DNA of 64,000 bases from Neodothiora populina (Eukaryota). Shown here one piece after another: positions 1-3,340 of this stretch. Below the pieces are notes generated by a model. That model saw only the letters and a list, made by a program, of their open reading frames with translations, did not search any database and was not told the DNA's origin. The first letter of the stretch is position 1, and every line of letters begins with the position of its first letter. The stretch covers positions 1-64,000 of the forward strand of contig NW_027191409.1 in NCBI RefSeq assembly GCF_041146345.1, written 5' to 3'. The position numbers were made by a program, and so were the translations under genes.

Positions 1-80
1 AACCCTAACCCTAACCCTAACCCTAACCCTAACCCTAACCCTAACCCTAACCCTAACCCTAACCCTAACCCTAACCCTAA
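1..80. repeat. Telomeric repeat (CCCTAA)n, left chromosome end
   Basis: About 13 perfect CCCTAA units at the window start, the canonical TTAGGG telomere of filamentous ascomycetes. Confidence 0.99.
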
Positions 81-258
81 AGCTCAACAACATAACGATT
101 AAGAACAGATATCCACTACCTAATATTGAGGAACTACAGGACCGATTGTCCAAAGCTCAATGGTTTAGCAAGATTGATCTAAAAGGAGCCTACAATCTTA
201 TCAGAATGAAGGAAGGCGAGGAATGGAAAACCGCGTTTCGAACGAGATACAGTCATTT

Positions 259-456
259 TGTCAGGGTTCTGAGTCAGGAATAAAGATCAGTACGTAGATA
301 TAAGTCCAAGCTATATAACGAGACGTAGACAGGGGAGGAAAGACAGTACTAGGTCGAGGACAGGGAAGTACGGCGTTGAAGCCACGAGTCAGGAGTATAA
401 GTCACGTAACCTATACTAACTCAGGTGTCACGGTGATCAACGACCAAACCGTGACA
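259..456. mobile_element. Solo LTR of a second family inserted in pol
   Basis: 198 bp bounded by TGTCA...TGACA. It interrupts pol exactly between RT (..RYSHF) and RNase H (DHKNL..). The flanks CATTT/GATCA do not match, so there is no TSD. Confidence 0.7.
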
Positions 457-767
457 GATCATAAGAACCTCTTGCACTTTACAACAACAAAAGTTCTTAA
501 CCGCAGACAAGTTAGATGGTCTGAACTCCTTAGACAATATAAGTTCAACATTTGTTACACTCCAGGACGCGACAACAGCAGGGCAGACGCGCTTAGCAGA
601 AGAACAGACTACATAGAAGGAAAAGAACAGATGCAGTATAGCATACTAAAAAAGAACAATGACAGAAGCCTAAGTGCTAACGCTCAGGAATTTAATGTTA
701 CTATAAAGATACGACGAGACAATATGGAACAATTTCCTATTAATACGGATAGATATTACATATCAAC

Positions 768-1141
768 TGTTAAGGATTGGTTGTGAGGCTACTACGAATA
801 ATAGTCTCTCCTGGGTTGGACTCGTGAAGAGGAGTATCAAGGCACACGTGAAGAGGTAATTCCAATCACTGGTAACGAATATGAAATTGAACACAATGTT
901 CCATAGGGGAACATTGTTTACTGCTATATACCTTTTGGTATCGTAAGTGAGAGTAGTGGATCACTCCTATCACTCGTGAGTAGAGTGATTGAATCACTGT
1001 GATCACTCGTGAGCCAAGTGATCCTGAATCACTGTGATCACTCGTGAGTCAAGTGATTCCCCTTGGGGGGTAACCCTGTCCAGGGATTGATCACTCGCCA
1101 AGCCAGTGATTCGTGCGGGGTGCACGTGTGGGATCGTAACA
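768..1141 (-). mobile_element. Solo LTR of the host element's own family, inverted, nested in pol
   Basis: TGTTA...TAACA ends, reverse-complement homolog of the LTR at 2972-3340, and a perfect 5-bp TSD TCAAC (763-767 and 1142-1146). Removing it restores the pol frame (..YIST-LQQEECIRSHHD..). Confidence 0.95.
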
Positions 1142-2357
1142 TCAACCTTACAACAGGAAGAATGCATTCGCAGTCATCACGACGACCTTATAAACGGACA
1201 CCTCGGAGTAACAAGGACAATAGAACTAATACAACGACACTTTACATTCCTAAGAATAAAGTAACAAGTCACCACTTACATCGCACAATGTCACAGCTGT
1301 CAAGTTCATAAGGCATCTAGACATGCTAAGTACAGCAGTATTCAGTTTTCCGAACCACTTACTACGCCGTAGGAAGAAGTCACGATAGACTTCATTATTA
1401 AATTACTAAAGTCAAAGGAGCCAGCGACGGGATTCCATTACGACTCGATTCTAGTAATCGTGGACAAACTAACGAAGTATGCGCACTTCATTCCATGTAA
1501 TGAAAGCATCAATGTAGAACAACTCGGATATCTAGTACTAGATCGACTAGTGCGATATCATGGGATACCAAGAACATTCATCACAGACAGGGACAAGCTA
1601 TTTACATCAAACTACTAGAAAACGCTAGTCGGAGCAATAGGGATAAAGCATAAACTATCGACAGCTTATCACTCACAGACCGATAGACAAATAGAACGAA
1701 TAAACCAGACCTTAAAGACATATTTGCGACGCTATGTAAATTACGCACAGAACAATTAGGTACAACTATTACTAGCGGCACAACTTGCACTTAACAACAA
1801 TATATCCGCGACCACGAAACATACACCGTTCTACGCAAACTACGGACGACACCCCAACTTGTTCAATGAACTAAGAACGCATCCTAATGCATAAAAGGCG
1901 TTACAAGATGTCAACGAACTACAACAGGTACATCGACACATTTAATAGAACATTGCGACTACACAAAACAAGATCTTACAAAAAATAAAAATAAGAAAAG
2001 ATCCTTAGCTTAAAGAGGGGGATAGGGTATATCTACATACGAGGAACCTAAAAACAAAACGACAAATAAAGAAACTCGACCAAGTGAAAGTCGGACCTTT
2101 TTGAATCACTAAAGTTAAGGGACTAGTTAATTACCAACTAAAGTTACCTAAGGACGCCAAAGTACATCCAGTGTTCCACATCTCCTTATTGGAACCAGCC
2201 GACCTAGAAACACCCTTGCAGGAAACGTTCCATTATCAGCTAGAGGAGGAAGACGAGTTTAAAGTCGAACGTATTCTAAAACAAAAGGGTTAGAGATATT
2301 TAATCAAATGGAAAGGATATCCCGAGACGGAAAACACGTAAAAACCAGTCACGAACC

Positions 2358-2870
2358 TTAAGAACTGCCAGCAGCTGTTACGGCAGTATCACTAAGAGGA
2401 GGATCGAAGTTGATGAAGTCATTCACCATGCTAATGGAACCCTAGATAGCAGGGGAAAGACCCACGAGAGCGTCGGTAGCAGGACAGTCAGGGTTCTTAT
2501 GATCAAGTTCGCCTTAAGCCTTTATTTCATTCTTAAGGCACTTGGCCATTTTCCGAGCACGCGCTTCGGCCTGCCAGAGTATTTTCTTATAACGCATAAG
2601 GCGAGCCAGCACATGAGCCAGCTCGGCCTCGTCATCATCGACTTTCTTTTAATACTCCTCGCGAGTACGGTCCAGCGAGGACCAAGACAGATTAACACAT
2701 GCGCGACTAAGCCGCACACACTCGGAACAGCGAAGACGAGAAGCACCGTCTATGACGATGCAAGTATAACCGGAAGAAAAACAACGATCATAAGGAATCT
2801 TAGAAATATGACCACTCCTTTCGATTTCTAATGCTAAGCGAAGACGATTTCTAGTGGCAGAGGAAGACAT
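2358..2870 (-). pseudogene. Antisense accessory ORF of the retrotransposon, ~170 aa, Zn(II)2Cys6-like motif plus predicted coiled coil; inactivated
   Basis: ATG at 2870. P[Y]DRC-FSSGYT-C-IVIDGASRLR-CSEC-VRLSRA-C is followed by the helical segment EEY*KKVDDDEAELAHVLARLMRYKKILWQAEARARKMAKCL. Three internal stops are each one transition from CAA/TGG, and the frame is preserved to TAA at 2358. Confidence 0.75.
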
Positions 2871-2958
2871 TGTTGAAAGACGATTGAAGAACAGGCGGTG
2901 GAACCTTATGTGGGCACATTTACGTAATAACACGAGGCTATCGGGACGATTAGCTAAT

Positions 2959-2971
2959 AGGAGGGGAATGG
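2959..2971 (+). promoter_or_regulatory. Polypurine tract (plus-strand primer) of the retrotransposon
   Basis: AGGAGGGGAATGG immediately before the TG of the 3' LTR. Confidence 0.85.
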
Positions 2972-3340
2972 TGTTACGATCCCACACGTGCACCCCGCAC
3001 GAATCACTAGCTTGGCAAGTGATTACTCCTGGACAGGGTCACTCCCAAGCAGGATCACTCGGCTCACGAGTGATCACGATGATTCACGAGTCACTTAACT
3101 CACGAGCGAGCAAGTTGATCGTGTCACCCGGCTCACGAGTGACGAGGGTGATACAATACACTCACTTACATTGCCAGGAAGGTATATAGCAGTAGACAAT
3201 GTTCCCCTATGGAACATTGTGTTCAATTTCATATTCGTTACCAGTGATTGGAATTACCTCTTCACGTGTACCTTGATACTCCTCTTCACGAGTCCAACCC
3301 AGGAGAGACTATTACGTAGCCTCACAACCAATCCTTAACA
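2972..3340 (+). mobile_element. 3' LTR of the chromovirus (369 bp)
   Basis: TGTTA...TAACA ends, preceded by the PPT, contains TATATA (~3183), and is homologous to the inverted copy at 768-1141. Confidence 0.93.

Follow-up and report, generated by a model that had tools for sequence, protein, structure and literature searches.

The first 64,000 nucleotides of contig NW_027191409.1 of Neodothiora populina (assembly GCF_041146345.1; forward strand, hereafter the window) hold, on the minus strand at positions 2358-2870, the dead remnant of a genuine accessory gene. The gene is an antisense open reading frame (aORF) situated between pol and the 3' long terminal repeat (LTR) of a Ty3/gypsy chromovirus, and a clade of ascomycete chromoviruses carries it in the same antisense place. 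The wreck could be identified because intact relatives, purifying selection and element association were all found, and for the region as a whole a dead aORF copy from an antisense chromovirus gene family is very probably the best explanation. The window copy cannot make protein, and any regulatory scheme is inoperable in the window. Functionless in itself, the copy has its value as a confirmed member of the family, showing that a reconstruction made from sequence alone was right.

Read on the minus strand, the frame runs from an ATG at 2870 to a terminal TAA at 2358-2360. Its N-terminus reads MSSSATRNRLRLALEIERSGHISKIPYDRC, followed by C-x6-C-x10-C-x2-C-x6-C and a helix-like stretch, and Tyr27 (TAT at 2790-2792) occupies the position at which a C-x2-C would require Cys. 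An earlier inspection of the letters alone (hereafter the sequence-only reading) had described a 170-codon frame with this Cys pattern, three stops and the Tyr, and the frame reads exactly so. It had also placed the frame between the chromodomain and the polypurine tract (PPT), where the Pfam Chromo match and the PPT indeed bracket it (Table 1), and had noted an overlap with the pol 3' end, which amounts to 56 nt. The Tyr had been taken for a replaced ancestral Cys, and Cys stands at that place in 21/21 distinct intact relatives. The further proposal that each stop reverts by a single transition fared unevenly: the TAG at codon 143 corresponds to Trp in nearly all aligned homologues and the first TAA to Gln in several, but the second TAA (codon 119) aligns with a variable position (S/A/N/G), and its reversion is uncorroborated. 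Stop codon 74 falls inside the helix region, and stop codon 119 lies just past the helix end. The window aORF was inactivated by point changes only, and the same holds for pol.

With its stops written as X, the window read-through frame finds 16 protein matches (E 1e-53 to 1e-27), of which the majority are intact, with 166-175 amino acids (aa). At E<=1e-3, a profile built from 28 intact members extends the family to 472 cluster representatives, of which 217 remain at <=1e-10 and 34 at <=1e-30; the profile also has 378 matches in a word-indexed protein collection. The named profile matches come from Dothideomycetes (Cercospora, Elsinoe, Periconia, Sporormia and Macroventuria) and from lichen-forming fungi (Xanthoria and Variospora); all are labelled 'hypothetical' except one UniRef 'Zn(2)-C6 fungal-type domain-containing protein'. 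A protein atlas search returned only unnamed Ascomycota clusters, and a cluster look-up of 10 distant representatives gave three entries with a source name, each a 'hypothetical protein'. One member of 407 aa (P0039) is filed under Quercus suber (POE89773.1) and in all likelihood stems from fungal DNA within a plant assembly. For annotation, the consequence is that such genes are labelled 'hypothetical protein' or omitted, and that mutated copies can be mistaken for host zinc-cluster pseudogenes.

Furthermore, a metagenome scan yielded 33 loci (L001-L033) that are 36-63% identical to the window frame, 23 of them with an intact ORF of 157-179 codons (21 distinct). All six Cys are kept in every one of the 21, and they are invariant in 22/22 N-terminal segments from sequences 43-91% identical. 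The intact gene is a single exon of ~157-179 codons. At most loci its 3' end shares ~30-60 nt with the pol tail, and six loci lack any overlap; its ATG lies ~80-105 nt from the PPT/LTR, the spacer measuring 82-106 nt in most relatives. The encoded protein proceeds from a basic N-terminal helix through the six-Cys cluster, an SW-SLD-TR linker, a helix of ~55 residues and an acidic stretch to a DCPAA...SP..W motif. In alignment A2, two extra conserved Cys were seen, C110 of P0002 in the helix (nearly invariant) and C128 in the DCPAA motif (invariant), together with an invariant Trp (W142, P0002 numbering). The conserved tail of the aORF protein has no Pfam match.

The gene travels with the element. 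A chromovirus pol C-terminus lies directly downstream on the opposite strand at 31 of the 33 metagenome loci, and the other two end at a contig edge. The element association of homologues, on which the sequence-only reading depended, was found antisense at the chromovirus pol 3' end in 31/31 testable loci. The adjoining ORFs (48 long ORFs) carry the Pfam domains RVT_1, RNase H, Integrase_H2C2, rve, SH3_Tf2-1 and Chromo. Gag and protease-reverse transcriptase (PR-RT) sequences appear in metagenome contigs beyond an LTR-sized gap on the other side of the aORF, which means that assembly had passed through the LTR common to both ends. The window is built alike, with the aORF antisense and the pol tail downstream of it. 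Position, antisense orientation and coding conservation across copies and families are all those of an antisense additional ORF (aORF-3R; brtn type).

A host zinc-cluster gene, or a fragment of one, might merely lie beside the element or have been captured by it once. Zn2Cys6 genes are very common in ascomycete genomes, which gives this explanation some initial appeal, and the contig of L029 has host genes (CCDC47 and P450) upstream. Against this, even L029 has a pol remnant downstream, and place and orientation are identical in all 31 testable loci despite their spread of 36-63% identity to the window frame. Moreover, the 150 listed cluster representatives are all short (<=407 aa), with no long host-type factor among them. 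Within the window, no exon with a complete six-Cys pattern occurs, and a search there for a canonical single-exon Zn2Cys6 gene found none. A host origin of the frame is accordingly very improbable.

By comparison of the related sequences, the aORF frame is under purifying selection. The NG86 ratio of nonsynonymous to synonymous substitution (dN/dS) has a median of 0.26 and a range of 0.07-0.43 (34/210 pairs with 0.05<dS<1.5). In the aORF part outside pol it is 0.14 (14 of 15 chosen pairs), the lowest of the six frames; in this control the third-position mirror frame gave 0.24 and the other frames 1.3-3.0. The aORF frame is open in 21/21 sequences, and each of the five other frames in <=1/21. 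These figures were set against the view that the frame is a chance or mirror ORF, whose conservation would stem from sense-strand signals (the pol tail, the 3' untranslated region and the PPT region). The third-position mirror frame on the pol strand is indeed also low in dN/dS (0.24-0.30), and open frames of 130-220 codons occur on the pol strand at several loci. However, the mirror frame contains stops in 20/21 sequences, whereas the aORF frame, with the lowest dN/dS, contains none; the pol overlap covers just ~30-60 nt, the six Cys persist across sequences of 43-91% identity, and the family numbers hundreds of members. The chance or mirror-ORF view was rejected, being contradicted by the six-frame dN/dS and the stop counts, and retains a negligible probability. 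The relatives, in sum, have the Cys, lack the stops, are under selection (0.14-0.26, with all six Cys kept) and are element-associated, in each respect as the sequence-only reading had anticipated.

The manner in which the window copy decayed is less distinct. At 223 columns where >=6/7 relatives agree, the window differs at 35, and its changes comprise 16 C>T or G>A vs 5 T>C or A>G, compared with 4-8 vs 3-11 in the intact relatives. The element as a whole has a TpA/ApT ratio of 1.07 vs 0.67-0.71 in the flanks, and a (CpA+TpG)/(ApC+GpT) ratio of 0.88 vs 1.26-1.32. The sequence-only reading had attributed the Cys-to-Tyr change to repeat-induced point mutation (RIP). The excess of C>T or G>A changes, balanced in the relatives, agrees with that attribution; RIP of the window aORF is plausible on this evidence and not sharply shown, because only 5/16 of the changes stand in a CpA/TpG context. 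Several other loci (L007, L010, L026, L027, L029 and L030) are AT-shifted and stop-riddled, with Tyr for Cys as in the window, and L026 has a GC content of 30%. In the aORF family, C-to-T mutation is a common cause of death.

The encoded protein is Zn2Cys6-like, probably a divergent relative of that domain and at most a putative member; this assignment draws on sequence patterns and predicted models. The spacing C-x2-C-x6-C-x5-12-C-x2-C-x6-8-C fits 20/21 distinct intact relatives, the remaining one (L006) having 13 residues between C3 and C4. Searched against the PDB sequences at E<=10, the N-terminal profile gave three matches only, Pho7 (two constructs) and Ppr1 (hmmsearch E 1.5-6), and in the Ppr1 alignment all six Cys are in register with the aORF family. 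For fold comparisons, which used models made without zinc, Foldseek with the whole model placed Zn2Cys6 domains at ranks 1, 2, 3, 5, 6, 7, 9, 11 and 12, and across the Foldseek searches the top ranks are Zn2Cys6 domains at E 0.8-8. The N-terminal model compared with 48,161 chains gave 16 chains with Z>=2, of which five are Zn2Cys6 at a Z of only 2.2-2.4: Gal4 (Z 2.3, root-mean-square deviation 2.4 over 36), Lac9 (2.3, 2.0 over 33), Leu3 (2.2, 1.6 over 35), Pho7 (2.2) and Ppr1 (2.2). VIA-align with the whole model found only generic coiled coils (Z<=6.7).

A group of results weighs against a canonical Zn2Cys6 assignment. All of the fold and PDB sequence matches just given are statistically weak, and the whole-length aORF profile has 0 matches among the PDB sequences at E<=10. 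The gathering score of Pfam Zn_clus (PF00172), 21 bits, is reached by 0 of 17+92 members, the best scoring 18.7 bits. Zn_clus matches at E<=10 occur in 8/17 members of alignment A1 (best E 0.002) and at E<=0.01 in 4/92 representatives; they are at noise level, because the unrelated Bunya_G1 matched 9/17 members equally well. The window frame itself has no Zn_clus match at E<=10. In addition, the six residues between C2 and C3, a stretch whose basic residues rest against DNA in the complexes that have been solved, hold 0-2 Lys/Arg in the 22 segments vs 4 in Ppr1 (RLKKIK) and 3 in Pho7 (QKDNKK), which makes a canonical reading of bases by this stretch doubtful. The label 'GAL4-type Zn(II)2Cys6' in the sequence-only reading is therefore kept for the spacing and for the kind of neighbours found, which are, weakly, only Zn2Cys6 domains, and given up for the Pfam cut-off and the basic C2-C3 stretch. 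The Zn_clus profile check that it had proposed went against it, with no member at the gathering cut-off and no match from the window frame.

The coiled coil that had been placed after the cluster fared better, since a long confident helix is found there and the model pairs it into a homodimer. An AlphaFold2 model of P0002 on the alignment (mean predicted local distance difference test score, pLDDT, 78.4) shows an N-terminal helix, a small knotted six-Cys region, a 56-residue helix (residues 62-117) with a pLDDT of ~95 or more and a poorly defined tail. Modelled as two copies with 4 Zn, the homodimer scores 0.54 vs 0.00 for the best of three controls; its contacts are spread over residues 60-107, contact agreement between runs is >=62%, and the partner pLDDT is >=68. 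In the benchmark of this procedure, the mark was reached by 21/30 proteins solved as one-chain pairs and by 0/23 solved as single chains. A coiled-coil homodimer is thus supported as a prediction. Its geometry speaks against a Gal4-like arrangement, as the modelled pair is antiparallel (contact pairs with i+j ~166-172) and Gal4-type dimers are parallel coiled coils. An antiparallel dimer would set the two Cys clusters at opposite ends, ~80 A apart as estimated from the helix length.

Every LTR inspected begins with TGTTAC, often continues with CACGTG, and then carries 2-5 repeated, often dyad-symmetric units directly upstream of GTATATAG. The repeated 8-mers in 19/22 distinct U3 regions are reached by <=2/200 dinucleotide shuffles, and 12/22 contain 6+6 dyads beyond the shuffles (<=2/200). 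A CACGTG core, often GTCACGTGAC, stands just upstream of the variable dyad repeats in 14/22 U3s (for example in L006, L008, L009, L013, L015, L019, L021-L023 and the window), which suggests a conserved host-factor site next to repeats that are specific to the subfamily. By eye, the repeat type differs between protein subfamilies, but common descent confounds this match and would explain it as well. In the 3' LTR, the repeats separate the sense TATA box from the antisense gene, whose ATG is ~150-300 nt away. The spacer that separates the ATG from the LTR is the immediate upstream region of the aORF on the minus strand. Most elements have a short hairpin-like inverted repeat (e.g. GATTCGAGGACGAATC) just 5' of the PPT, and many spacers contain a GCTTATRA motif 35-45 nt from the antisense ATG. 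This TATA-like motif was weighed as an antisense core promoter, for which it lies too close to the ATG to convince.

An intact aORF protein would be a zinc-binding homodimer that binds nucleic acid, and its most likely target would be the U3 dyad repeats of its own element, which are specific to the subfamily. The repeats could then act as one divergent control region common to two units, the genomic RNA (in the 5' LTR) and the aORF itself (in the 3' LTR), and the acidic Trp-containing tail may be an effector part. Such a zinc-binding homodimer, acting most likely on its own U3 dyads, is a possibility put forward tentatively. The sequence-only reading had likewise supposed a regulator of the element's own LTR, driven perhaps from a putative antisense promoter in the 3' LTR. 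The dimeric nucleic-acid-binding protein on U3 repeats would be the most economical reading, at a confidence that stays below even. A bolder version is unlikely as it stands: these chromoviruses would be 'complex' retroelements with a transactivator of their own, in which a zinc-cluster dimer reads subfamily-specific U3 dyads in a feedback loop and repeat/regulator pairs mark the subfamilies. If it were true, the feedback loop would couple the genomic RNA of the element to its regulator, and new repeat/regulator pairs would mark new subfamilies.

Nearly as likely as U3 binding is that the protein, real and element-borne, is not a sequence-specific transcription factor and serves another step of element life. 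Candidate roles are the binding of RNA or cDNA, the bridging of integrase/chromodomain or capsid to a host partner, and the blunting of host silencing. Such a role would suit the missing Pfam-level Zn_clus membership, the lack of the basic C2-C3 stretch of Ppr1 and Pho7, an antiparallel model coil that would hold the two clusters far apart, and the location of the most conserved blocks outside the cluster (SW-SLD-TR, the helix and DCPAA...SP..W). On the other hand, the only structural and sequence neighbours found are DNA-binding Zn2Cys6 domains, the LTR dyad repeats are suited to a dimer, and the order of cluster, linker, coiled coil and acidic tail is that of small fungal activators. In the usual view, gag and pol suffice for an LTR retrotransposon, which relies on host factors for its transcription. 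Hundreds of fungal elements keep a third gene under purifying selection beside repeat-rich LTRs, and a seemingly dimeric zinc-cluster protein beside LTR enhancers would be a directly testable transposon-encoded regulator.

The host element in the window belongs to the chromoviruses by its reverse transcriptase (RT), RNase H, integrase and C-terminal chromodomain in this order, followed by a PPT and a TG...CA LTR (Table 1). The read-through pol frames of the window give the Pfam matches RVT_1, RT_RNaseH, Integrase_H2C2, rve, SH3_Tf2-1 and Chromo, arranged in this order. Over its 418 codons, the integrase-chromodomain frame (1157-2410) is interrupted by 12 in-frame stops, without any frameshift. 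Compared with the intact pols of related elements, it shows 51-56% identity over 414-431 aa, and the alignment reaches the final residues of those pols. Cut off by the telomere, the element lacks gag and the 5' LTR. The telomere repeats end at 86 and pass straight into RT coding sequence, which suggests that the chromosome end was healed within the retrotransposon. The inverted solo LTR between RNase H and integrase is flanked by a 5-bp duplication, TCAAC (763-767 and 1142-1146), and the pol alignment runs across it without loss (from residue 696 to 698 of the L006 pol). Truncated, interrupted and stop-riddled, the window element is triply dead.

Table 1. Features of the decayed chromovirus and its antisense frame (positions in the window).
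Feature	Position	Strand	Remarks
Telomere repeat (CCCTAA)n	1..86	+	adjoins the truncated RT directly
pol of Ty3/gypsy chromovirus	87..2413	+	5'-truncated, stop-riddled; RT 80-283; RNase H 376-786; integrase to chromodomain 1157-2413
Inverted solo LTR, same family	768..1141	-	86% identity with the 3' LTR; separates RNase H from integrase
Chromodomain	2267..2392	+	Pfam Chromo, E 8.5e-10; last ~35 nt and pol tail to TGA 2411-2413 overlap the aORF 3' end
aORF (decayed antisense accessory ORF)	2358..2870	-	170 codons, no frameshift, 3 in-frame stops, Tyr for first Cys
aORF internal stops	2649-2651; 2514-2516; 2442-2444	-	TAA (codon 74); TAA (codon 119); TAG (codon 143)
TAG, aORF codon 143	2442..2444	-	Trp in 15/16 homologues of alignment A1; Gln in P0012
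Long helix (predicted coiled coil), aORF codons ~63-118	2517..2684	-	placed by alignment with the modelled relative P0002 (its residues 62-117)
Six-Cys cluster region, aORF codons 27-58	2697..2792	-	Y-x2-C-x6-C-x10-C-x2-C-x6-C here; C-x2-C... in intact relatives
Spacer, aORF ATG to LTR	2871..2971		101 nt; short inverted repeat ATCG GGA CGAT ~2940-2950; PPT GGAGGGGAATGG 2960-2971
3' LTR	2972..3340	+	369 bp, TGTTA...TAACA; U3 with CACGTG 2985-2990 and TATA box GTATATAG 3182-3189
Dyad repeats in U3	3003-3023; 3054-3074; 3123-3143		second: arms of 8, 5-nt spacer

Other copies of the element are visible in read assemblies. The LTR boundaries 2972 and 3340 coincide with the break-off points of contigs from other copies, and many LTR-ended contigs run into unlike sequence at these two positions. 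In the contigs of DNA run X1, the internal part (2100-3001) has a depth of 34.6, the same as unique sequence, and the 3' part of the LTR (3200-3340) has a summed contig depth of ~600-720, a contig depth being no copy number. These contigs suggest many solo LTRs or other copies and perhaps a single internal region; among the contigs examined, no intact copy of the window's subfamily was seen. Run X3 (probably DNA) covers LTR pieces only.

In comparison with the Zn(II)2Cys6 domains of Gal4, Ppr1, Leu3, Pho7 and Lac9, the aORF family shares the pattern C-x2-C-x6-C-x(8-13)-C-x2-C-x6-C followed by a linker and a dimerising helix, but all members tested fall below the Pfam cut-off and have 0-2 rather than 3-4 basic C2-C3 residues. 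Unlike the Zn(II)2Cys6 factors, the aORF protein is a stand-alone protein of ~170 aa without a middle homology region, it is encoded by a retrotransposon, and its coil is predicted to be antiparallel. Complex retroviruses encode the transactivators Tat, Tax and Bel1/Tas. By analogy, the aORF would resemble these in being an accessory gene close to a retroelement's 3' end, with a possible action on the element's own LTR; however, there is no homology, the aORF lies on the opposite strand, and its LTR action is putative.

Antisense accessory genes are known from other Ty3/gypsy elements, as the sequence-only reading had stated for some fungal ones. The brtn antisense gene of Boty-like elements was reportedly treated by Zhao et al. 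2011 (Virology 417:248). According to excerpts of three papers, brtn is an additional antisense gene of Boty-like Ty3/gypsy elements in Botrytis cinerea and Sclerotinia (PMC8365987, PMC7264820, PMC4227169). The likeness, drawn by description only, is that both concern a chromodomain-bearing fungal gypsy element in which an additional gene, on the strand opposite gag-pol, sits between pol and the 3' LTR. A difference lies in the named matches of the aORF family, which are from Dothideomycetes and lichen-forming fungi; none of the 120 profile matches listed bears a Botrytis or Sclerotinia name. The passages of the literature that were found do not describe brtn as a zinc-cluster or coiled-coil protein, and the literature search, within the library that it covered, found no zinc-cluster/coiled-coil antisense gene in fungal retrotransposons. 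In plants, the excerpted account lists aORF-3R genes in Grande1, RIRE2, Retand and PvRetro13, antisense between pol and the 3' LTR (PMC7264820), which agree with the fungal aORF in position, orientation and conservation within families. They differ in belonging to plant elements, the six-Cys cluster and coiled coil being features of the fungal aORF, and no sequence relation is expected. As far as these excerpts describe it, brtn of the Botrytis Boty elements is the closest known case to the aORF, which represents a genuine gene family at a position known before and encodes an apparently undescribed type of protein.

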